Source of the DNA: Nitrosopumilaceae archaeon
GTDB taxonomy: Archaea > Thermoproteota > Nitrososphaeria > Nitrososphaerales > Nitrosopumilaceae
Assembly (NCBI GenBank): GCA_965214835.1
Contig: CBDCCK010000002.1
Location: forward strand, 1,824,001 to 1,888,000
DNA: 64,000 nt
Reading direction: 5' to 3'
Numbering within the stretch: position 1 is the stretch's first letter; every line of letters begins with the position of its first letter. The notes below the pieces were generated by a model, which was not told where the DNA came from, made no database searches, and saw only the letters and a list, made by a program, of their open reading frames with translations. Position numbers and translations under genes: made by a program. Positions 8 to 30,574 of this stretch are shown here, piece after piece.

Positions 8-95
8 GTTGGCGTTGGCAAGCCCACCGAGCTGATGCCTCGGCGAGTGGCCCCTACACGGGCCGTTCATGCGGGTTCAACTCCCGTCGCCAACG
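8..95 (+). tRNA. Degenerate copy of atypical long-variable-arm tRNA(GAU); 7-nt deletion in D-arm
   Basis: Same as 2707-2801 except loss of 7 nt in the D-arm and 3 loop substitutions. Acceptor GTTGGCG/CGCCAAC, anticodon stem CCGAG/CTCGG with loop CTGATGC, T-loop TTCAACT. Confidence 0.7.
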
Positions 96-103
96 CTATA
101 ATC

Positions 104-1737
104 GTATGTGGTCACCTACCCCTAGATTATTTTGGCCACCTCATCCATGATGGACTTGCCCTGCAGCTTCCATGTCGACACGCATGTATTGAGCCATCCA
201 TGCCTTTCCGTCCAGACCAGGCCGCCCTTGATCTGGCCGTTTATCTTGAATTGAAGTACGACGGGGCGCAGTGCCCGCTCTGCACCATTGTTGGTCGGCT
301 CGACACCCTCGTATTCCAGAAACGCAAACATGCACGGCAGGGCCCTGTGCATCCTCTTGAGAAGGGGCTCCAGCGGGCCGCCCCACGCACCAACGTATCC
401 GAACAGCATGTTCTGCATGTTGGTCTCAAACCGCCGGCGCAGCTCCGGCGAGTGCCGCCCCATCAGTCCGCCGGCACTGCTTATCCCCGTCCTCTCCTCG
501 AGCTCCCGGAGATCCTCCCCGGACAGCTTGTCCCAGCCCTCAAGACACTCCCTGGCATCCTTGAACAGCTGCTGCATCTGCCGGTACAGGACTCCTGCAA
601 ACAGCAGGGCACCCTTTTTCTGCGAGCCATACAGGAGGAACCGCAGCTCGTGCGCCCAGCACCGCTGGAGCCTTCCCAGCAGCCCGAACCTCTTGTATGC
701 GGGATATCCGTCCGATGTGACGACGCCCCCGTACCCGCCCATGTACTGGTCCAGGATCCGGGCGCTCCTGGTGTCTGCATATATCATGAACACGCCCACC
801 GCCGACAGCATGGCCCACGCCCATCCCAGCCTGCCTGCCAGGTTGATCCCCGTCTCGTCTATGCAGACCGTCTTTGAGCTTCTTACCTCCTCTGCGATGG
901 CCTCGGCAGGCGCCTTTGCGGCGTCGCAGACGCGTCCTATGCTGTTGATTGCAGTTGACTTTGACATGTGCACGCCCAGGATATCTGACATTATACCCGG
1001 GATCCTGTTGTGTGGGACGCCCTCACTGCGCAGCTTTGTGACGGCTGTGACCACGCTCGTGTCATAGCTGCCGCGTCGGGGCAGGCCGTCGGGGGCAGTA
1101 TGCATGGTGCCGCATTTCGGGCACACTGCCCTCTGTGTCTCGTGGCGCGTCTCGGTGTACTTTATCTTGAATCCTATCATGTCGCGCACCTGCGGCTTTT
1201 TCATGATCTCTGTGGTGGTGCCGCACTTGCACTCCGGCGCCCGTCCACCCGGAAAGCAGTGTTTCTGTACCCTGGGGGCCGGTGGGTGCGCGATACGCCC
1301 TTGTGGCCCTTCTGGCCGCCGGGCTTTTTTCTGTCCTCCCCGGTGCCGTCATCCCCAGCTGCAGCATCGGGCCGGGCCCTCTCCTTTCTCCTCTGCGCCT
1401 TTTGCCTCTTCCACTCCAGCGAGTCTGCCGACGGGGGCGAGTTCTCGTTCTCGTAGTACCGGAGCCGGTTGTCCTGCTCCCTGATGGTCTTGTCGCGCTT
1501 TTCAAGTGTCTTGTTTAGCCTTTCAATGGTCCTGCCCTGCTCCTCAATGATATTGTCACGCTCCTTGAGGTCCTTTTTTAGATTCCTTATCGTCTCCGTG
1601 GGCGATGCTGTAGATGCCTTGATCTCGTAGCATGCGGAGAGCTGACCTTTCACAATGCCTAGTCTACGCGATCATAGTATAAGGATCAGCACCGTCAGTA
1701 ATGTTTACCCTATTGTGAGGGGTAGGTGACCTCATAC
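104..1737 (-). mobile_element. IS66-family element
   Basis: TIRs GTATGTGGTCACCTACCC / GGGTAGGTGACCTCATAC; no matching TSD; paralog at 43139-44831. Confidence 0.9.
122..1653 (-). pseudogene. IS66 transposase split into two ORFs (1201-1653, 122-1204)
   Basis: NSPPSAD, KKPGGQKGHKG, IDETG, SDGY, QRCWAH and PTNNGAERALR motifs; frameshift near 1260. Confidence 0.85.
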
Positions 1738-2078: not shown

Positions 2079-2501
2079 ATGAAGAACTTCAAAGCACTGA
2101 TGATCGAGATACTGCTGTCAATTGCAGGGGGAATCATAGTTGTCATAATAGTGGATGTCGCTCGTGCAGCAATCAGGAAAATAAAAAGAGGCGGGGAGAT
2201 ATCCGATCTCCGAAGGTCTTTCAAGCAAATTAAGGTGCGCATAAAGCCTGTTCCGGGTGACAGTGGCAAGCTGTTTGGGAATAACGAATGGTTTGAACGC
2301 TTCCAGTCTGAGCTGCAGGGTGTCATAGTAGAGGTGACGCATTCTGAGAATCTAAGAACCGATCAACATCGAAAGTTGGTGCGCATGATAGACAAGAGGC
2401 TGTACGTGCTTGAGAATTTTCCATATGACCGGCCACCGGCGGAAGTCTATGGACAATTCTTTGCAGACCTGAAAGGACTCCGGTGGCTGGGCCTGGAATA
2501 G
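2079..2501 (+). CDS. Hypothetical protein with N-terminal membrane anchor
   Basis: 140 aa ATG ORF with hydrophobic N-terminal helix; lies between the two tRNA copies. Confidence 0.65.
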   Translation: MKNFKALMIEILLSIAGGIIVVIIVDVARAAIRKIKRGGEISDLRRSFKQIKVRIKPVPGDSGKLFGNNEWFERFQSELQGVIVEVTHSENLRTDQHRKLVRMIDKRLYVLENFPYDRPPAEVYGQFFADLKGLRWLGLE

Positions 2502-2675
2502 TGCCGCGTGCGGCGGTTCTGCATGTCATGTTCGTGATGCGTCAGGTTACATCCCGCTCACGGGTTCAGACGGCATTGCAGCCGAGAAAACCCGTACAGC
2601 CCGGACGGCGTTGAGTCTGTCAGTCCGTACTACAATGCCGTCCCTTAACTGTTCCCCGAAATCCCACTTTTGTAA

Positions 2676-2686
2676 TCTAATATACA
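2676..2686 (+). promoter_or_regulatory. Putative archaeal TATA box for the tRNA
   Basis: AT-rich CTAATATACA about 25 nt upstream of 2707. Confidence 0.35.
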
Positions 2687-2706: not shown

Positions 2707-2801
2707 GTTGGCGTTGGGCATTGGCAAGCCCACCGAGCTGATACCTCGGCGAGTGGCCCCGAGACGGGCCGTTCATGCGGGTTCAACTCCCGTCGCCAAC
2801 G
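2707..2801 (+). tRNA. Atypical class II tRNA: anticodon GAU (Ile), 9-bp variable arm, G73
   Basis: Full cloverleaf folded by hand: 7-bp acceptor, D-stem GGGC/GCCC with loop ATTGGCAA, anticodon arm CCGAG-CTGATAC-CTCGG, V-stem GAGTGGCCC/GGGCCGTTC, T-arm GCGGG-TTCAACT-CCCGT. Confidence 0.85.
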
Positions 2802-2848
2802 CTATAATCTATCCAGACATTCTATAAAAAAGTAGGGATCTGACAGTT

Positions 2849-4347
2849 GTACGAGGTCACGTTCCTAAACCAGTTTCATGACCTCGTCTGCTACGGATCT
2901 GCCCCTTGCCCTCCATGTCAGTATGCACGTCATAAACCACGACCACCTCCTCATCCAGAGTTCCCCTCCCTTGATCTGCCCGCTTATCTTGCGGAAGACG
3001 ACGGCGTAACGGAGGGCACGCTCTGCGGCGTTGTTTGTGGGATGCACGTTGTCGTGCTCCAGGAACGTAAACAGGTGCGGCAGCGAGCTTGTCAGTCTGC
3101 GCAGTACCGGGCCCAGGACGGGGTCGTCCGTGCTTTCCCGGTACCCGAACAGTATGTTGCGCAGCCAGGACTCGAACCTTCTGCGCAGATCCTTGCCCCT
3201 GTCCTTCCTCCTTGCCCTGACGGCGCTGCGGTACAGCTGCCGAAGCTGCTCGTACAGTATTCCCGCAAACAGCGGGGCGCCCTGCTTTTGCGCCGCGTAT
3301 TTTGATACGCGCAGCTCGTGCGACCAGCACAGCTGGTGTCTGTCCTCCCCGTTGAACCTGTCATACACCGAATATTTGTCAGATGTCACTATTCTGCCAT
3401 ACTTGTCCATGTGCCTGTCCAGGAACAGTGCGCCCCTGCTCGTATTGTACTTGACAAACACGCCGTTGTCCGTCTCGGCAGTCCATGTCCATATGCGACT
3501 GCCGTTCATGTTGGCCGCAGTCTCGTCTATTCTGACGTTGGATGATCTCTTGATGCCGCCCAGGATCGCGCCTGACGGCTTTTGCATAGAGTCGCATACC
3601 CCTCCGATCATGTTGATTACGGTAGATTTGGCGATGCTCCTGCCGGTAAAATCCTTGAGCGTGTCTGCCACGGACTGCAGCGGCATGTGCCTTGCGCGCA
3701 AGGCAGACACAAGGGAGATCATGTGCTTGCCGTACCTGCCCCTCCTTGGGAGTCCGTCGTCTGCTGATATCATAATGCCGCACAGTCTGCATGTGGCACG
3801 CTCGGTTATGTGTCGCGTCTCTGTCATCCGGACCGGTTCAAAGTCGATGATGTTCCGTATCAGGGCAGTTATGTCCATGGCCCTCCCGCACATGCACACC
3901 GGCGAGCACGTCCCGTCGTTGTCCTGGAACGTGTGAAGCACCGTCTTCTGGGGGTCGTGTCTTCTGGATGTCCCCTTGTGGCCCCTCTGGCCTCCCGGCT
4001 TTTTGCCGGTGCCACTGTTGCTACCGTTGCCACGGTTACTGGCCCTCTCCCTTTTCCGCTGCGCCTTTTGCCTCTTGTACTCTAGTGATTCTGCAGACGG
4101 TGGCGAGTTCTCGTTCTCGTAGTACCGGAGCCGCCTGCCTTGCTCCTCGATTATCCTGTTCGCTGCCTTTTGGTTATTTTCTAGCGTGCTTATTCTGTCT
4201 GTGAATGATACAATTGTGGCCTCTAGTTCGCGGTATGTGGGTCGACGGCCTTTCATGTTGATGCTATACAGGCATCGTATTTGATCAGCATGATCGCAAT
4301 ATGTTAAGCAGGTTGTCAAAACACGTCAAAACTAGGTGACCTCGTAC
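2849..4347 (-). mobile_element. IS66-family element, intact
   Basis: TIRs GTACGAGGTCAC / GTGACCTCGTAC; 8-bp TSD TGACAGTT at 2841-2848 and 4348-4355. Confidence 0.95.
2865..4256 (-). CDS. IS66 transposase (single ORF)
   Basis: NSPPSAES, KKPGGQRGHKG, IDET, HQLCWSH and PTNNAAERALR motifs; likely start MKGRRPTY. Confidence 0.92.
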   Translation of the reverse strand: MKGRRPTYRELEATIVSFTDRISTLENNQKAANRIIEEQGRRLRYYENENSPPSAESLEYKRQKAQRKRERASNRGNGSNSGTGKKPGGQRGHKGTSRRHDPQKTVLHTFQDNDGTCSPVCMCGRAMDITALIRNIIDFEPVRMTETRHITERATCRLCGIMISADDGLPRRGRYGKHMISLVSALRARHMPLQSVADTLKDFTGRSIAKSTVINMIGGVCDSMQKPSGAILGGIKRSSNVRIDETAANMNGSRIWTWTAETDNGVFVKYNTSRGALFLDRHMDKYGRIVTSDKYSVYDRFNGEDRHQLCWSHELRVSKYAAQKQGAPLFAGILYEQLRQLYRSAVRARRKDRGKDLRRRFESWLRNILFGYRESTDDPVLGPVLRRLTSSLPHLFTFLEHDNVHPTNNAAERALRYAVVFRKISGQIKGGELWMRRWSWFMTCILTWRARGRSVADEVMKLV

Positions 4348-7474: not shown

Positions 7475-8194
7475 TCATTTACTCTTGGCGCTGTCACGAT
7501 ACCACGGATCATATCCCAGCCTGTCCAGCATGTGTTCCCACGATTGGAATTCCCCCTCGTACTGCGATACGGTAAATTCAGAGTGCTCCTCAATGTCTTC
7601 TTTTGTGGGGGTGCGACCGACATCCAGTTTTACGCGCTCAAACTCTACTATCATGGATATCTTGTTTGGCGGATCCACCGTCTTTGCAAGCCTGACTAGT
7701 ACGTCGATGCCGGTTCCAAACTCCTCCTCAATGTCAATCCTTGTAGCTCCTGTAGGCAGAAAATATTCGTGGCCGCCTGGGACGTGTTCTGATTCTTTTC
7801 TTACGATGCCTCGTCCAAGATCCCTCAGCATGTACGCACGGCGCTTGCTAAAGTATGACAAATCTGGATCATCATGTCCTCCGTTGTATGACGCACGAAG
7901 CCTTGCCTTGTATTCTATGTTTCTTGGGTTTCTTCGCACCCTGTAATTACAACAGTTGCAGTACCATCCAATCGACTCTTCAGTGGCCGGACTGCCGTCT
8001 TTGAGGCGTGCACCCCTGTAATCAATCCACACATCGCACATCTGGCAGTGCCCCTGTCCAGCGTTGTACCTGCCTCCTTGTGGCGGCTTTTTTACCCTGA
8101 ATTTTTTGCATGCCCCCTTGCATATCCTCTTTGATTTCACGGAATACGGTTGATCGTGTGAATATATGAGAATTTGTTCAAGTACTGCAACCAC
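7475..8194 (-). CDS. Thaumarchaeal-type Cys-rich Zn-finger fused to homing-endonuclease-associated-type repeat
   Basis: CKGAC, GRY..GQ..CQMCD.WI and CNCC.YR.R..PRN; C-terminal GRTPT....Y...F.SW...L motif. Confidence 0.65.
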   Translation of the reverse strand: MVAVLEQILIYSHDQPYSVKSKRICKGACKKFRVKKPPQGGRYNAGQGHCQMCDVWIDYRGARLKDGSPATEESIGWYCNCCNYRVRRNPRNIEYKARLRASYNGGHDDPDLSYFSKRRAYMLRDLGRGIVRKESEHVPGGHEYFLPTGATRIDIEEEFGTGIDVLVRLAKTVDPPNKISMIVEFERVKLDVGRTPTKEDIEEHSEFTVSQYEGEFQSWEHMLDRLGYDPWYRDSAKSK

Positions 8195-21663: not shown

Positions 21664-24234
21664 CTACTCATACTTGACATCCCCGTGCGCCGTGCCGCCG
21701 TTTCCGCTGTCCGAGGAGTCCGACAGGTCGCCTTCGAACTCAAGGTGCATCAGAAGCGCATCATTGTAGGCTCCCATATACGCACAATCGCCGGTAAGCG
21801 CGTCGACGGCACCGTCGCCTCCGGCATCTGACACGGTAGCCATCTCCACGTGGCATTCATGCACGTCTGATACATGGTCGGCAGGCAGCCGTGCCGAGTA
21901 TATCATGACATCATCCAGCACGGTATCATGCGCATGCCCCCTGCCGGTGCTGCTGGCGCCTATCGCAAGCGGATAATCGTTTGTGACGGATCCCTCCAGG
22001 AATGCGTTGTGCCGGCGTATGTTATCGAGCTGTCCGTCCACGTACACATCCAGTCCATTCCTTTCTCTGGAACCGTCATAGGTGAACACGACGTGGTGCC
22101 AGCGGCCATCGGCCACGCCGGAGAACGTGTTGATGGTTATCTGGCTTTTCGTCTCGTCTGTCATCCGGAGTGAGAGCCCGCCGCCGGGGTGGCTCCACAC
22201 AGTGATACCCTGCTGCCGGGCCGCCTCGGCCTTTGATATGATCGACGAGCCAGGTTCTCCAGAGCCGGTCATCTTGATCCAGAACGCGATGCTGAACGGA
22301 TCGGCTCCGCCAAGATCGAGGCCGGGCACGGTGGCAAACGTAACGTATGCGGTACCGTCAAGATGGATGGCCCGACCGGGCGGACTGTACGCGGACAGGG
22401 AGGTCCACTCGGGCGGGTTCCACTCCGTCACATCCACGCTGTGGCCGGCATACTCGTAAACCGCTGATGGTATCGGGGTGTCCGGTTTTGGGGGATTATG
22501 AAACTCGGCCATCCTGCTACCGCCATAGTATATCTCAACATACCGCTTCAGATCTGTTTCCTGGGGTGCCGTCGCATTGCCGACACCATGGTGGGCCCCC
22601 AGCAAGTATCGATTATGTTCCATCCTGTCTACAAATTCTATCATTACGATCTCTTTGGTTTTTTCCGGGTATGTGTTGCTAGCAAAGTTATCTGCCATGC
22701 CGGAATCGGTAAGATTGTAGATGCTTGATAGCCACGATTTGTTAATATTCCGCATGATTATTTGCGCGTCAGAATCCACATAGTTTCGTAGCGCAAAGGA
22801 TACCGCTTCAGGATACGCAGATGTCGCATCCCAGTGCACAAGCACGCCAGATGTGGACAGGCCGAGCGCCGTGGCGGCAAGTACGGCTGCCAACAGTAGC
22901 ACGCGTTGCCCCCTCGAATCCCACCTTCTTGCGTACACTCTTTCTATTCCTCCGCCGAGCAGTGCGGCGGCGGCAACACACATTGCAGTCCACAGCATGC
23001 CTAGGTGGAACCACGATACGTATCCAATTGATCCGAAGAACAGCAGGACTGGTGCTATCCACAGCATCAGAAACCTGTTACGCATGGCGGCCGCAAAGAC
23101 AAGCCCTGCTACACCCAGCGATATCAGGACTGGATCTATCTCGAACAGCCATATCGTGCCCATCAGCAGGATCGCAGGATGGGTCAATATGTCCGGATCT
23201 TGGCCCTGTACTAGGGATATCGGTATGTATTGTTGCAGCGAGTCCAGCATGTGTTGGCCGGATCTGTCTGTCTGCCACAGGACGCCTCTTATCCACTGAT
23301 CGAACTCACCCTCCAGCGCCGCAGACGCGGGCCATGCTGCCGCAATCAGGATCATGGATACAAGCCACAGCAGCATCCATCCCGGCCTTTTGCCGGCCGA
23401 CCAGACCAAAGCAAGAACCAGCGGGATCATCACAAGCGAGGGGATCTTGACAAGCATGGCACATCCCATACAGACGCCCGACAGGAGAACCAGCAGGTGG
23501 GCCTTGTCCGGGGCTGGCTGCAGCGGCGCCCTCCCCCCTGTGACGGAATTGCTCTTTGGATCTGGGCCGCATGCGTACATGGCAAGCAGAACGGAGGACA
23601 GGACAAACGGGAGTAGAATCGAGTCCAGCAGAACCATCCTGAGCGTCAACGATACGGGCATTGCCGCAAACAGGACGGCTGCGATCGGTGCTGCCCTGCG
23701 CCCAAAGCCCCTCTCGACTATCTTGTAGATCAGAAAGGTGTCCAAGACAGCAAGCAGGCCCATGAGGATGCGCGGTGCCCCGTAAAGCATCCCAATCGAG
23801 GACGCATCCTCCGATGTGACAAAGGAGTCAGGATATCCGGTGACATGCATGAATCCGGCCAGTATCGTCCAGCCAAGAAACGGATGGTCGTGAGTGTTCA
23901 ACAGTATCTTGTGATCTGAGACATCCAAGGCCCGGTCTATGTAGGTCGACTCATCCACGTACCAAGGCGGGAAACCCGCCGGGTTCCACAGGTGCGTATA
24001 TGCAGAAAGCGCCAGTATTGCAACAAGCATGAGGAGCGGTCCGCGTCCTGACAGGTGCCCGTGCCAAAAGTGACACGTCCGAGAGGGGGAGGGGCTGTCG
24101 CCTAATTTGCCTCCTTGGCTCAATCTACACGTTTTCCTGAACCTCCACTCCAGCACTCCTAGGCTCGGATGAGATCGTATGGTTTTCAGAAATTCCGATG
24201 AATTAGGCGACAACCCCCGTCCGAGGCCAAGCAT
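21664..24234 (-). CDS. GT-C (PMT/ArnT-like) glycosyltransferase fused to C-terminal LamG/ConA-like domain, copy 1
   Basis: DES.Y and DHPFLG loop, many TM helices; FSIAFWIK, DGRWHHVVFTYD, YVDG and LDDVMIY motifs. Confidence 0.88.
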   Translation of the reverse strand: MLGLGRGLSPNSSEFLKTIRSHPSLGVLEWRFRKTCRLSQGGKLGDSPSPSRTCHFWHGHLSGRGPLLMLVAILALSAYTHLWNPAGFPPWYVDESTYIDRALDVSDHKILLNTHDHPFLGWTILAGFMHVTGYPDSFVTSEDASSIGMLYGAPRILMGLLAVLDTFLIYKIVERGFGRRAAPIAAVLFAAMPVSLTLRMVLLDSILLPFVLSSVLLAMYACGPDPKSNSVTGGRAPLQPAPDKAHLLVLLSGVCMGCAMLVKIPSLVMIPLVLALVWSAGKRPGWMLLWLVSMILIAAAWPASAALEGEFDQWIRGVLWQTDRSGQHMLDSLQQYIPISLVQGQDPDILTHPAILLMGTIWLFEIDPVLISLGVAGLVFAAAMRNRFLMLWIAPVLLFFGSIGYVSWFHLGMLWTAMCVAAAALLGGGIERVYARRWDSRGQRVLLLAAVLAATALGLSTSGVLVHWDATSAYPEAVSFALRNYVDSDAQIIMRNINKSWLSSIYNLTDSGMADNFASNTYPEKTKEIVMIEFVDRMEHNRYLLGAHHGVGNATAPQETDLKRYVEIYYGGSRMAEFHNPPKPDTPIPSAVYEYAGHSVDVTEWNPPEWTSLSAYSPPGRAIHLDGTAYVTFATVPGLDLGGADPFSIAFWIKMTGSGEPGSSIISKAEAARQQGITVWSHPGGGLSLRMTDETKSQITINTFSGVADGRWHHVVFTYDGSRERNGLDVYVDGQLDNIRRHNAFLEGSVTNDYPLAIGASSTGRGHAHDTVLDDVMIYSARLPADHVSDVHECHVEMATVSDAGGDGAVDALTGDCAYMGAYNDALLMHLEFEGDLSDSSDSGNGGTAHGDVKYE
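24084..24217. mobile_element. MITE inside the 5' end of GT-C copy 1
   Basis: TIRs GGGGCTGTCGCCTAATT / AATTAGGCGACAACCCC; 8-bp TSD CGTCCGAG. Confidence 0.85.
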
Positions 24235-28003: not shown

Positions 28004-30574
28004 TTACGCATACTTGACACCCCCGTGCGCCGTGCCGCCGTTTCCGTTGTCCGAGGAGTCCGACAGGTCGCCCTCAAATTCAAGGTGCATCAGAAGCGCA
28101 TCATTGTATGCTCCCATATACGCACAATCGCCGGTAAGCGCGTCGATGACGCCGTCGCCTCCGGCGTCTGACACGGTAGCCATCTCCACGTGGCATTCAT
28201 GCACGTCTGACACATAGTCGGCAGGCAGCCGTGTCGAGTATACCATGATATCGTCCAGTGTAACGTCCTGCACAGCCTTCCCTTCGGTGCTGCCAGCGCC
28301 TATCACAAGCGGATGATCGCTTGCAATGGAGCCCGCCAGTGATGAGCTGTGCCGACGCAGGTTGTCTATCCGTCCGTCCACGTATACGTCGAGTCCGTTC
28401 CTGTACCCGGAGCCGTCGTAGGTGAACACAATATGGTGCCAGCGGCCGTCAGTTACGCCGGAGAACGTGTTGACGGTGATCTGGGTTTTCTCACCGTCTG
28501 TCAACCGGAGCGAGATCCCGCCGCCAGGTTTAGCCCACATGACAATGCCCGGGTGCAGATCTTTCCCGGCCTTTGACATGATCGACGAGCCCGGCTCTCT
28601 GGGGTCGGTCATCTTGATCCAAAAGGTGATGCTGAACGGATTGGCTCCGTCAAGATCTAGACCGGGTGCATCGGCAAGCGTGACGTATGCGGTGCCGTCA
28701 AGGTGGAGGGCCCGGCCGGTGGGGCCGTACGTAGACAGGGAGGACCACTCGGGTGGATGCCACTCGGTCACATCCACACTATGACCGGTATACTCGTAAA
28801 CCGCTGATGGTATAGGGGTGTCCGGTTTTGGGGGACCGTGAAATTCGGCCACTCTAGTGCCACTGTCGTATATCTCCAGATGCCGCTGATGTACATCTGC
28901 TTCCGGAGGCACAGTATTGACGATGCCGTAATGGGTTTCCAACAAGTGCCGAGCCTGCTCGATTCTGTTGATAGATTCTATCATTACGATCCTTTTAGTT
29001 TTTACAGGATGTATGTGCTTAGGGAGATCATCTGCCGTGCCAGAACCGGTAAGATTGTAGACGTTTGACAACAGCGATTCAGTAACCCCACGCATGATTA
29101 TGTCTGTATCAGAATCCGCATAGTTTTGCAGCGTAAAAGACACCGCTTCAGAGTACGCAGATGTAGAGTCCCAGTGTACAAGCACTCCCGACGTAGAAAG
29201 GCCAAGCGATGCGGCCACAAGTACGGCCACCAGCAGCAGTGTGCACTGCCTATCTGGGCCCCGCCTTCCCGCAGACGCCCTTTCGATTCTGCCACTGATC
29301 AGTGCAGCAGTGGCGATGCACATCGCAGTCCACAGCATTCCCAGGTGAAACCACTCTACATATCCAATTAATCCGAAGAACAGCAGGACGGGTACTGCCC
29401 ACAGCATCAGAAACCTGCTACGTATAGCGGCCGCAAAGACTAGACCTATTGCACCCAGTGATATCATGATTGGATCCACTCGAAACAGGGATATGGTGGC
29501 CATCAGCAGGATCGCAGGATGGGTCAATATGTCAGGATCATGACCCTGCACTAGAGCCACTGAAGTGTATTGTTGCAATACGTTCAGCATATTCTGACCG
29601 TATCTGTCTGTCTGCCACAGGACGCCTTTTATCCACTGATCGAACTCACCCTCCAGCGCCGCAGACGCGGGCCATGCTGCCGCAATCAGGATCACGGGCA
29701 CAAGCCACAGCAGCATCCGCCCCGGCCTTTTGCCGGCCGACCAGACCAAAGCAAGAACCAGCGGGATCATGACAAGCGAGGGGATCTTGACAAGCATGGC
29801 ACATCCCATACAGACGCCCGACAGGAGAACCAGCAGGTGGGCCTTGTCCGGGGCTGGCTGCAGCGGCGCCCTCCCCCCTGTGACGGAATTGCTCTTTGGA
29901 TCTGGGCCGCATGCGTACATGGCAAGCAGAACGGAGGACAGGACAAACGGGAGTAGAATCGAGTCCAGCAGAACCATCCTGAGCGTCAACGATACGGGCA
30001 TTGCCGCAAACAGGACGGCTGCGATCGGTGCTGCCCTGCGCCCAAAGCCCCTCTCGACTATCTTGTAGATCAGAAAGGTGTCCAAGACAGCAAGCAGGCC
30101 CATGAGGATGCGCGGTGCCCCGTAAAGCATCCCAATCGAGGACGCATCCTCCGATGTGACAAAGGAGTCAGGATATCCGGTGACATGCATGAATCCGGCC
30201 AGTATCGTCCAGCCAAGAAACGGATGGTCGTGCTTGTCGGACAATATCTTGTAATTCATGGCATCCAGAGCCTGCTCTATATAGACAGACTCGTCTACAT
30301 TCCAGGGCGGGAAACCCGCCGGGTTCCACAGGTGTGTATATGCAGAAAGCACCAGTATTGCAACAAGCATGAGGAGCGGTCCGCGTCCTGACAGGTGCCC
30401 GTGCCAAAAGTGACACGTCCGAGAGGGGGAGGGGCTGTCGCCTAATTTGTCTCCTTGGCTCAATCTACACGTTTTCCTGAACCTCCACTCCAGCACTCCT
30501 AGGCTCGGATGACATCGTATGGTTTTCAGAAATTCCGATGAATTAGGCGACAACCCCCGTCCGAGGCCAAGCAT
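28004..30574 (-). CDS. GT-C + LamG glycosyltransferase, copy 2
   Basis: 856 aa paralog of 21664-24234 with the same MITE at 30424-30557. Confidence 0.88.
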   Translation of the reverse strand: MLGLGRGLSPNSSEFLKTIRCHPSLGVLEWRFRKTCRLSQGDKLGDSPSPSRTCHFWHGHLSGRGPLLMLVAILVLSAYTHLWNPAGFPPWNVDESVYIEQALDAMNYKILSDKHDHPFLGWTILAGFMHVTGYPDSFVTSEDASSIGMLYGAPRILMGLLAVLDTFLIYKIVERGFGRRAAPIAAVLFAAMPVSLTLRMVLLDSILLPFVLSSVLLAMYACGPDPKSNSVTGGRAPLQPAPDKAHLLVLLSGVCMGCAMLVKIPSLVMIPLVLALVWSAGKRPGRMLLWLVPVILIAAAWPASAALEGEFDQWIKGVLWQTDRYGQNMLNVLQQYTSVALVQGHDPDILTHPAILLMATISLFRVDPIMISLGAIGLVFAAAIRSRFLMLWAVPVLLFFGLIGYVEWFHLGMLWTAMCIATAALISGRIERASAGRRGPDRQCTLLLVAVLVAASLGLSTSGVLVHWDSTSAYSEAVSFTLQNYADSDTDIIMRGVTESLLSNVYNLTGSGTADDLPKHIHPVKTKRIVMIESINRIEQARHLLETHYGIVNTVPPEADVHQRHLEIYDSGTRVAEFHGPPKPDTPIPSAVYEYTGHSVDVTEWHPPEWSSLSTYGPTGRALHLDGTAYVTLADAPGLDLDGANPFSITFWIKMTDPREPGSSIMSKAGKDLHPGIVMWAKPGGGISLRLTDGEKTQITVNTFSGVTDGRWHHIVFTYDGSGYRNGLDVYVDGRIDNLRRHSSSLAGSIASDHPLVIGAGSTEGKAVQDVTLDDIMVYSTRLPADYVSDVHECHVEMATVSDAGGDGVIDALTGDCAYMGAYNDALLMHLEFEGDLSDSSDNGNGGTAHGGVKYA

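Follow-up and report, generated by a model that had tools for sequence, protein, structure and literature searches.

We found that a 95-nt accessory transfer RNA (tRNA) gene of an ammonia-oxidising Nitrosopumilaceae archaeon joins an isoleucine anticodon (GAU) to a class II body with a long variable arm and G73, and that it is very probably a functional gene, belonging to a tRNA family specific to this lineage. The gene starts at position 2707 of a 64-kb window (the whole stretch of DNA analysed; contig CBDCCK010000002.1), to which all coordinates refer unless a genome or contig is given; the organism's own genome (3.22 Mb, 2 contigs) is labelled G000. Comparison of the copies indicates that selection holds the tRNA body while the anticodon loop switches between copies (GAU, GAA, CAG, UAG), nearly always keeping A35; the codons read would thus be N-U-N.

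An isoleucine anticodon on a class II body

ARAGORN reported tRNA-Ile(gat) at 2707-2802, and the Rfam tRNA model (RF00005) matched 2707-2801 with 48.1 bits (E 2e-8 in a 4-kb E-value scan), with a 24-nt insertion at the variable region. A whole-genome Rfam scan gave the gene the same 48.1 bits (model positions 1-71), the gathering cut-off of RF00005 being 29 bits. A window-wide Rfam scan at the gathering threshold with default filters returned no match, which is a filter miss and not absence of the gene. In its minimum free energy fold (-46.9 kcal/mol, z = -3.14) the sequence forms a cloverleaf of five arms, the variable stem having 9 bp; none of 200 shuffled sequences folded as well.

The cloverleaf stems have 7/4/5/5 bp (acceptor/D/anticodon/T). 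The acceptor stem is GTTGGCG/CGCCAAC, the 4-bp D stem GGGC/GCCC closes an 8-nt loop (ATTGGCAA), and the anticodon and T arms read CCGAG-CTGATAC-CTCGG and GCGGG-TTCAACT-CCCGT. All the core tRNA nucleotides are present, namely U8, A14, G18G19, U33, purine 37, T54-Psi55-C56, A58 and G53-C61; U9 and U15/U48 are atypical. G73 stands at 2801, and CCA is not encoded. A TATA-like box precedes the gene (Table 1), and AT-rich boxes lie at the same distance upstream of the canonical tRNA genes of G000. The structural details of the original prediction, which had been made from the letters of the window (the cloverleaf, the position of the anticodon, the 9-bp variable stem, G73 and the TATA-like box), all hold on direct reading.

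An archaeal tRNA-Ile(GAU) has a class I body, with a variable loop of 4-5 nt, and A73. The gene at 2707 shares with it the anticodon and A37, but has a variable region of 27 nt and G73. The canonical gene with which the original prediction had contrasted it was found elsewhere in the same genome (class I, A73, G000:C2:1373052-1373126, 67.6 bits), as part of a normal tRNA complement that includes canonical tRNA-Phe(GAA) and A73 tRNA-Leu genes. The prediction of an extra tRNA gene, whose isoleucine anticodon is at odds with its class II body and G73, is thus borne out by ARAGORN, Rfam and the sequence.

A long arm might also be an intron, and the original prediction had allowed that this one could be spliced out as a bulge-helix-bulge (BHB)-type intron. 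Our motif scans found no convincing BHB-type intron that would excise the variable arm, although they did not cleanly recover their positive controls either, which makes this weak evidence. The candidates were poor, with an outer helix no longer than 2 bp, without an inner helix and in conflict with the T stem, and they were no better than those in genuine Ser/Leu tRNAs.

Selection on the tRNA body

A blastn search of G000 recovered five close copies and a weak sixth (Table 1). ARAGORN assigned the anticodons gat, gat, gat, gaa and cag to the close copies, and cag to the sixth. Each close copy is a unit of ~220 bp, made up of the promoter box, a leader ending in AATGAC, the tRNA and a conserved 42-nt trailer. 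In DNA-type contigs of four sequencing runs, the paralogue variants and the junction with an adjoining insertion sequence (IS) recur in two studies.

Divergence per site was calculated pairwise among the five intact close copies. It was 0 in the D loop, 0.013 in the stems and 0.086 in the T loop, 0.116 in the promoter box, 0.20 in the trailer and 0.25 in the variable-arm loop, and reached 0.383 in the upstream flank and 0.386 in the anticodon loop. Four of the 10 variable positions fall in the 7 anticodon-loop sites and three in the 6 sites of the variable-arm loop, which leaves three for the other 82 (anticodon loop versus rest, Fisher p = 4.6e-4). The anticodon-loop positions that vary are 32, 34, 36 and 37. 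U33 and a purine at 37 are retained in all close copies, and position 37 is the same as in the canonical counterpart (A37 with GAU, G37 with GAA and with UAG).

Covariation was analysed in an alignment of 14 sequences of the family, of which 13 are distinct and one is a genuine tRNA-Leu. Base pairing is present in 97.7% of its cells, a value favoured by the fitting of the alignment to the model. Both sides have changed in 19 of the 30 pairs, including 5 of the 9 variable-arm pairs, and all five helices show compensatory changes. None of 500 shuffles reached 19 such pairs, and no slid register came close. The low stem divergence and the covariation together point to a selected functional RNA of tRNA architecture and not to a relic; a divergent loop of 7 nt flanked by identical stems is not what gene conversion by itself would produce.

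Relatives in other genomes

A sequence pattern that covers the anticodon arm and the first part of the variable arm matched two of 61 related genomes (five times in G000, once in its congener G002). The G002 copy is identical to the 2707 gene over 95 of 95 nt, and its trailer is identical too; its upstream flank shows the same degree of divergence as the flanks of the paralogues. Among 101 genomes, the family model R1 scored 95.6-118 bits at six loci only, all in G000 and G002, and 65 bits for the diverged copy. A scan for the T arm and acceptor end, with one genome per species, gave 10 loci, six of them family members. One is in G101, a Nitrosopumilus metagenome-assembled genome; it bears UAG, with the same promoter and trailer, and its 9-bp variable stem (L069) is built of different letters. 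Four Nitrosarchaeum/Nitrosopumilus members have the GTTGGCG acceptor, G73 and arms of 5-7 bp (GAA in three, GGA in one), and the sixth is the G002 record. The remaining four loci do not belong to the family; they hold class I tRNA-Arg or tRNA-Glu genes or, in one case, no tRNA. In a metagenome scan that gave 13 loci, ARAGORN placed a tRNA over the match in four (two GAA family members and two ordinary tRNA-Arg), and the T-arm/acceptor pattern had no match in a collection of viral contigs. Conserved homologues, the lack of which would have spoken against the original prediction, therefore exist and covary, in G002, in G101 and in Nitrosarchaeum/Nitrosopumilus genomes.

Searching four complete genomes with R1 (two of them also with a Ser model) revealed more G73 long-arm tRNAs, on other acceptor stems. 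Their anticodons are all GAA or GAU, except for one CAG copy with an unpaired acceptor stem. In G102 and G103, 6/6 matches of class II length other than canonical Ser/Leu are of this G73 long-arm kind, a count that excludes one 101-nt match per genome. Altogether, 23 distinct long-arm accessory loci were collected from 9 genomes and 2 metagenome contigs, with the anticodons GAA (8), GAU (7), CAG (3) and UAG, GAG, UAU, GGA and GUG (1 each). A35 is present in 21 of the 23 and a Leu anticodon in 5, in a sample of related loci that were found with family-derived models and in which accessory copies with Ser anticodons would count as tRNA-Ser. G73 is found in every locus whose acceptor stem is drawable. 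In the Nitrosarchaeum-type group the anticodon loop itself is conserved: six GAA loci have the loop CTGAA(A/G)A in common, on anticodon stems of five different sequences.

In G103, a GAA and a GAU accessory tRNA (G103:C1:853364-855406, L067/L075) are convergent and 1.9 kb apart. Between them lie an open reading frame (ORF) of 71 aa with a CxxC...CxxC zinc ribbon and one of 255 aa; a similar zinc-ribbon motif is present at the start of the window ORF at 7475-8194, which has an HNH-associated repeat.

Probable leucine-type ancestry and serine-type identity elements

The first 8 nt of the trailer, CTATAATC, are identical to the trailer of the genuine tRNA-Leu(CAG) gene, and YTATAAT-like trailers follow that gene in two congeners. 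True tRNA-Leu and the Nitrosarchaeum-type members have the T arm GTGGGTTCAA.TCCCAC and a GGTCAA D loop in common. The shared trailer and these sister-group motifs make a Leu-type origin likely, with a gene of tRNA-Leu(CAG) type as the probable ancestor of the family. The tRNA-Leu(CAG) of G000 (G000:C2:1091389-1091473) resembles the family in its long arm and in its anticodon, which two family members also bear. It differs in the acceptor stem and discriminator (GCGGGAG/A73, against GTTGGCG/G73 in the family), in its 3-bp D stem with a 13-nt loop and in its arm of 3 bp, against 9 in the family. The cross-scores are low, with 29 bits for this gene on R1 and 28-37 bits for the family on the Leu model.

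All genuine tRNA-Ser examined have G73 and all genuine tRNA-Leu have A73 (8 aligned Leu). The family has one unpaired nucleotide 5' and two 3' of the variable stem, as genuine Ser tRNAs do, whereas genuine Leu tRNAs have three on the 3' side. The 2707 gene thus has the long arm and G73 of a tRNA-Ser, but not its anticodon (NGA or GCU) or G30-C40, carrying GAU and A30-U40 instead; it lacks the A73 that accompanies the long arm in archaeal tRNA-Leu. G73, followed by G30-C40, is reported as a strong element for archaeal and bacterial-type SerRS, a change from A73 to G73 switches Leu to Ser identity in several contexts, and Haloferax LeuRS depends on A73 and on a particular sequence in the arm loop (PMC9976931). 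G000 encodes one bacterial-type serS and one leuS, and hence no dedicated extra synthetase. As far as sequence elements can tell, G73 and the long arm favour SerRS; scores on both isotype models are poor, and in four of the five intact close copies the Leu-model score is slightly the higher.

Copies, mobile elements and neighbouring genes

Two IS66-family elements adjoin family copies in the window (Table 1). One begins ~47 nt downstream of the 2707 gene, where assembly contigs break at 2847-2849, and the other is inserted 8 nt past the damaged copy; their transposases are 39.9% identical (tblastn). Beyond the IS ends (GTAYGWGGTCAC...), the sequence differs from that of the IS-free copies, which continue with different, mutually similar sequence. 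We considered whether the tRNA is part of an IS66 element and rejected this, the IS ends lying outside the conserved unit and at unequal distances from it. G000 has 59 IS66-like loci, and four accessory tRNA loci have an IS66-like gene within 1.5 kb downstream. The IS66 elements convergent downstream of accessory tRNAs (104-1653 and 2849-4319 of the window, G000:C2:702464-704082 and 914644-916152) belong to three lineages, with ~40%, 43% and 97% protein identity to the intact copy of the window. Their position beside accessory tRNAs may reflect IS-rich islands or a target preference.

Table 1. Accessory tRNA gene, its parts, its copies in G000 and adjoining genes (window positions, or contig C2 where so marked).
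Feature	Position	Strand	Evidence or remark
Accessory class II-shaped tRNA gene, anticodon GAU, G73, 95 nt (copy w2707, intact)	2707..2801	+	ARAGORN, Rfam, minimum free energy fold, family covariation
Anticodon GAT in loop CTGATAC (U33, A37)	2740..2742	+	sequence; ARAGORN gene position 34
Variable region, 27 nt	2750..2776	+	9-bp stem 2751-2759/2766-2774, 6-nt loop, unpaired 1 nt 5' and 2 nt 3'
TATA-like promoter box TAATCTAATATAC	2673..2685 (-34..-22)	+	alignments; kept in all close copies
Conserved trailer CTATAATCTATCCAGACATTCTATAAAAAAGTAGGGATCTGA	2802..2843	+	first 8 nt as in trailer of genuine tRNA-Leu(CAG) gene
Copy w8, damaged paralogue, GAU, loop CTGATGC, 7 nt of D arm deleted	8..95	+	ARAGORN (8-96), Rfam 30.6 bits, alignment
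Copy c182k, GAU	C2:182875		one-base deletion, mismatches in D arm and acceptor
Copy c1090k, GAA	C2:1090321	-	intact
Copy c2887k, CAG	C2:2887467	-	intact
Copy c914k, CAG	C2:914323		88 nt, diverged; acceptor stem and T stem both with compensatory changes
End (GTACGAGGTCAC...) of an IS66-family element, with intact transposase gene (2865-4319, 484 aa)	2849..4319	-	Pfam DDE_Tnp_IS66 2.6e-35
Second IS66-family transposase, frameshifted (ORFs 122-1204, 1201-1653)	104..1653	-	Pfam 1.2e-29
140-aa ORF, N-terminal hydrophobic segment, C-terminal YGQFF..L..LRWL	2079..2501	+	no known family

The intact GAA copy, c1090k, lies ~1 kb from the tRNA-Leu(CAG) gene, inside a 1.39-kb insertion that is missing from the congeners G001 and G004. 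Mobility of the family in the manner of miniature inverted-repeat transposable elements or short interspersed nuclear elements was not shown, as this insertion is complex and without clean boundaries. Beside the copy (G000:C2 L003:6564-6944), there are two short repeat segments of ~240 and ~140 bp that recur dozens of times in G101 and G002, at 80-93% identity, and resemble a miniature mobile element.

The 140-aa ORF lies upstream of three family copies, namely the 2707 gene, c2887k (ORF at C2:2887775-2888095, 76% identical) and the G101 member (77%); a 33%-identical homologue is convergent to the G002 copy. It has no match in Pfam, PADLOC or PHROGs, and its Atlas matches are sub-threshold only. 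No recurrent defence, toxin or transferase gene was found beside the family copies, and no PADLOC match recurs among the neighbours. No PIN domain was detected in the 31 window ORFs scanned (1-30.6 kb), so the decoy of a nearby PIN toxin that the original prediction had suggested is not supported. At 21664-24234 (-) and 28004-30574 (-), in a cluster of glycosylation and sulfotransferase genes, the window carries two paralogous 856-aa genes with a PMT-type glycosyltransferase and Laminin_G_3.

Other unusual tRNA genes of the same genome

Three further long-arm G73 tRNA genes of G000 have other acceptor stems (G000:C2:381279-381363(-), 2806142-2806225(+) and 702318-702405(+)); they are a UAU gene (86 nt), a GAA gene (85 nt) and a third whose anticodon loop has 6 nt. 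A second accessory family is of class I and 72 nt (GGGCCCCTAGTATAATGG...), with the anticodons AAG, GAA, AAG and GAG at G000:C2:66617-66687(-), 2234423-2234493(+), 2756709-2756779(+) and 3019690-3019760(+). A degenerate copy of the tRNA 5' half lies ~55 nt upstream of each of these genes and is followed by a TATA-like GGATTATAG. In 4/4 units the anticodon-arm part of the half-copy bears the same anticodon as its full gene, with matching changes in half-copy and full gene.

Discussion

The following mechanism may account for the family. The gene's own promoter would drive transcription, and the transcript would mature by the usual tRNA route. The tRNA would then be aminoacylated regardless of its anticodon, most likely by the sole bacterial-type SerRS reading G73 and the long arm, and less likely by LeuRS. 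The charged tRNA could compete weakly with canonical tRNA-Ile(GAU) at AUC/AUU codons, leading to low-level ambiguous decoding, for which nematode nev-tRNAs in vitro and some allo-tRNAs in E. coli provide a precedent. We regard this chain as a whole, from transcription through anticodon-independent serylation to weak competition, as a tentative proposal, plausible but somewhat more likely to fail at one of its steps than to hold throughout. A stronger version, in which serine-accepting tRNAs of ammonia-oxidising archaea are aimed at hydrophobic N-U-N codons and paralogues swap anticodons on one body, would amount to evolvable ambiguous decoding (Ile/Phe/Leu as Ser), possibly conditional; we consider it rather unlikely.

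Several observations weigh against serylation and decoding of this kind. The 2707 gene scored 32.5 bits on the local Leu model R2 (true Leu, 105.7-112.9) and 26.6 bits on the local Ser model R3 (true Ser, 105.6), which is below even the cross-scores between the two isotypes (63.7 for true Ser on the Leu model and 61-73 for true Leu on the Ser model). It has A30-U40 and not G30-C40, the second serine element of PMC9976931, and its 4-bp D stem, U9, U15/U48, U2-A71 and U3-A70 are unlike those of genuine Ser tRNAs. The target codons are common and not rare (AUY 4.1%, UUY 3.5% and CUG 3.7% of codons in 523 long ORFs); efficient insertion of serine would be very harmful, and this argues against efficient mistranslation. 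The restriction to N-A-N anticodons, subject to the bias of the 23-locus sample, is better explained by a hydrophobic cargo (Leu), or simply by Leu ancestry, than by serine. The complete identity with the G002 copy could be due to recent transfer or conversion and not to selection. Finally, anticodon loop and flank diverge at the same pace within the genus, as could also be expected if the anticodon were of no importance.

This last point leads to the possibility that the family is a selected tRNA-shaped RNA that acts outside decoding, as an aminoacyl donor, a regulator, or a decoy or substrate of a tRNA-binding protein, its triplet having no coding meaning. An anticodon loop at 0.386 beside an unconstrained flank at 0.383, with stems at 0.013, is what such an RNA might show, and so are the poor scores on the Leu and Ser models, the atypical core (U9, U15/U48 and, on a class II body, a D stem of 4 bp), the cost of decoding at abundant codons, and the three copies that adjoin the same 140-aa ORF of no known family. 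All close copies have nevertheless retained a 7-nt loop with U33 and purine 37, A35 is kept in 21/23 loci, and the Nitrosarchaeum-type group keeps GAA over five anticodon stems; moreover, the neighbourhood offers neither a recurrent defence, toxin or transferase gene nor, among the window ORFs scanned, a PIN domain. On balance we find a role outside decoding somewhat unlikely.

The Leu ancestry suggests another course, in which LeuRS charges the family via the long arm, so that the CAG and UAG members are extra Leu tRNAs and the GAU and GAA members cause tolerated Ile-to-Leu and Phe-to-Leu replacements. The trailer and the sister-group T arm and D loop are consistent with this, as are the N-A-N anticodons, that is, hydrophobic codons, in 21/23 loci, the slightly higher Leu-model scores of 4/5 intact copies, and the pair formed by c2887k and the G101 member, both of which follow the 140-aa ORF and bear different Leu anticodons (CAG and UAG). 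There is also a precedent, since nev-tRNA(Ile) and nev-tRNA(Gly) are reported to be charged with Leu only (PMC3333845). What makes charging by LeuRS decidedly unlikely is the discriminator, which is G73 in all members with a drawable acceptor stem and A73 in all genuine tRNA-Leu examined, together with the need of Haloferax LeuRS for A73 and a defined sequence in the loop of the arm (PMC9976931). Family members do not consistently keep the 'AG' of the arm loop (CGAGAC, CTAGCC, CCATAC), and two bases, not the three of genuine Leu, are unpaired 3' of the arm.

If instead the anticodon set the identity, IleRS would charge the GAU copy and PheRS the GAA copy, each being a harmless redundant isoacceptor for which common codons pose no problem. 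The loops with GAU/A37 and GAA/G37 do match the canonical CTGATAA and CTGAAGA at 6/7 positions, and GAA and GAU recur on several unrelated acceptor stems. However, one body bears four different anticodons, and its G73 stands against A73 in the canonical Ile, Phe and Leu tRNAs of G000. We know of no class II tRNA that is a substrate of IleRS or PheRS, and regard cognate charging as very improbable.

More improbable still is a decaying, functionless repeat spread with mobile DNA, whether with IS66-like elements or by segmental duplication. It would be in keeping with the damage to two of the five close copies, the IS-rich surroundings (59 IS66-like loci in G000, an IS66-like gene within 1.5 kb downstream of four accessory loci), the insertion around c1090k that G001 and G004 lack, and the presence of the close family in 3 genomes only. 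It is at variance with a stem divergence 30-fold below that of the flank, variable sites concentrated in two loops, compensatory changes in all five helices, a conserved promoter box and the retention of one or more intact copies in each genome; the IS ends, in addition, lie outside the unit, at 8 nt and ~47 nt, and come from IS66 lineages that are ~40% identical.

We give almost no credence to the long arm being a non-canonical intron, the splicing of which would yield an ordinary class I tRNA-Ile: such introns are described as frequent in thaumarchaeal tRNA genes (PMC8450103), and an 87-nt tRNA-Arg(CCU) with G73 and a 16-nt variable region (G000:C2:148333-148419(-)) may be a genuine gene with one, but here the arm is an unbroken 9-bp hairpin without bulges, the BHB candidates, as weak evidence from scans whose controls were not cleanly recovered, are no better than in genuine Ser/Leu tRNAs, G73 and A30-U40 would persist after splicing, GAA, CAG and UAG are found on this body as well, and G000 already has a canonical tRNA-Ile(GAU).

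A tRNA that is serylated irrespective of its anticodon, the course that we tentatively prefer, can be compared with known systems. In yeasts of the CUG clade, a class II tRNA-Ser(CAG) that derives from tRNA-Ser has serine-type identity, reads a leucine codon and is ambiguously charged, and it underlies fixed or stochastic codon reassignment. G000, in contrast, has the full set of canonical decoders and gives no sign of reassignment. tRNA-Sec has an extended acceptor/T branch, a D stem of 6-7 bp and the anticodon UCA, none of which is found in the 2707 gene, with its 7/5 branch, 4-bp D stem and GAU.

Closer are the nev-tRNAs, which have a canonical 7/5 class II fold, derive from tRNA-Leu, bear anticodons that are neither Leu nor Ser (including Ile), and are multi-copy and lineage-specific (PMC3333845, PMC4033280). 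The 2707 gene is likewise of class II with a non-Leu/non-Ser anticodon, and its Leu ancestry is suggested by the trailer and the sister-group arms. The nev-tRNAs are eukaryotic (nematode), mainly carry UAU and CCC for rare codons, and are shown to be Leu-charged (PMC3333845, PMC4033280), whereas the archaeal family has G73, GAU/GAA/CAG/UAG at common codons, a 9-bp arm and an anticodon that differs between near-identical paralogues. Allo-tRNAs combine a long arm with highly diverse non-serine anticodons in one family, and their identity (Ser or Ala) is independent of the anticodon (PMC5389517); diverse anticodons on one long-arm body (GAU, GAA, CAG, UAG) are found here too. They are, however, bacterial, with an 8/4 or 9/3 acceptor/T branch and a tRNA-Sec-like D arm (PMC5389517), whereas the 2707 tRNA has the standard 7/5 branch, a 4-bp D stem and an 8-nt D loop. 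By analogy, the archaeal family would function most like nev-tRNAs and allo-tRNAs, yet it is a member of neither.

The table of a 2014 review (PMC4033280) lists no long-arm anticodon-mismatched tRNAs for Archaea, and no archaeal report turned up in our literature searches; the supplements of tRNAscan-SE 2.0 may list such genes as isotype mismatches. Beyond the original prediction, the present analysis shows a multi-copy family with variable anticodons that are nearly all N-A-N and correspond to common codons, with probable descent from a tRNA-Leu(CAG)-type gene. It adds an archaeal case with a fully canonical 7/5 fold and clear evidence of selection on the tRNA body. The near-identical paralogues, which differ almost only in the anticodon loop, form a natural series for the study of tRNA identity in Nitrosopumilaceae. 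Should these tRNAs be charged and take part in translation, marine nitrifiers, which are abundant, would possess a means of regulated mistranslation at common codons; should they act outside translation, they would point to a tRNA-dependent function not yet known. Either way, such genes will confuse automatic tRNA annotation and codon-reassignment screens in Nitrosopumilaceae genomes.

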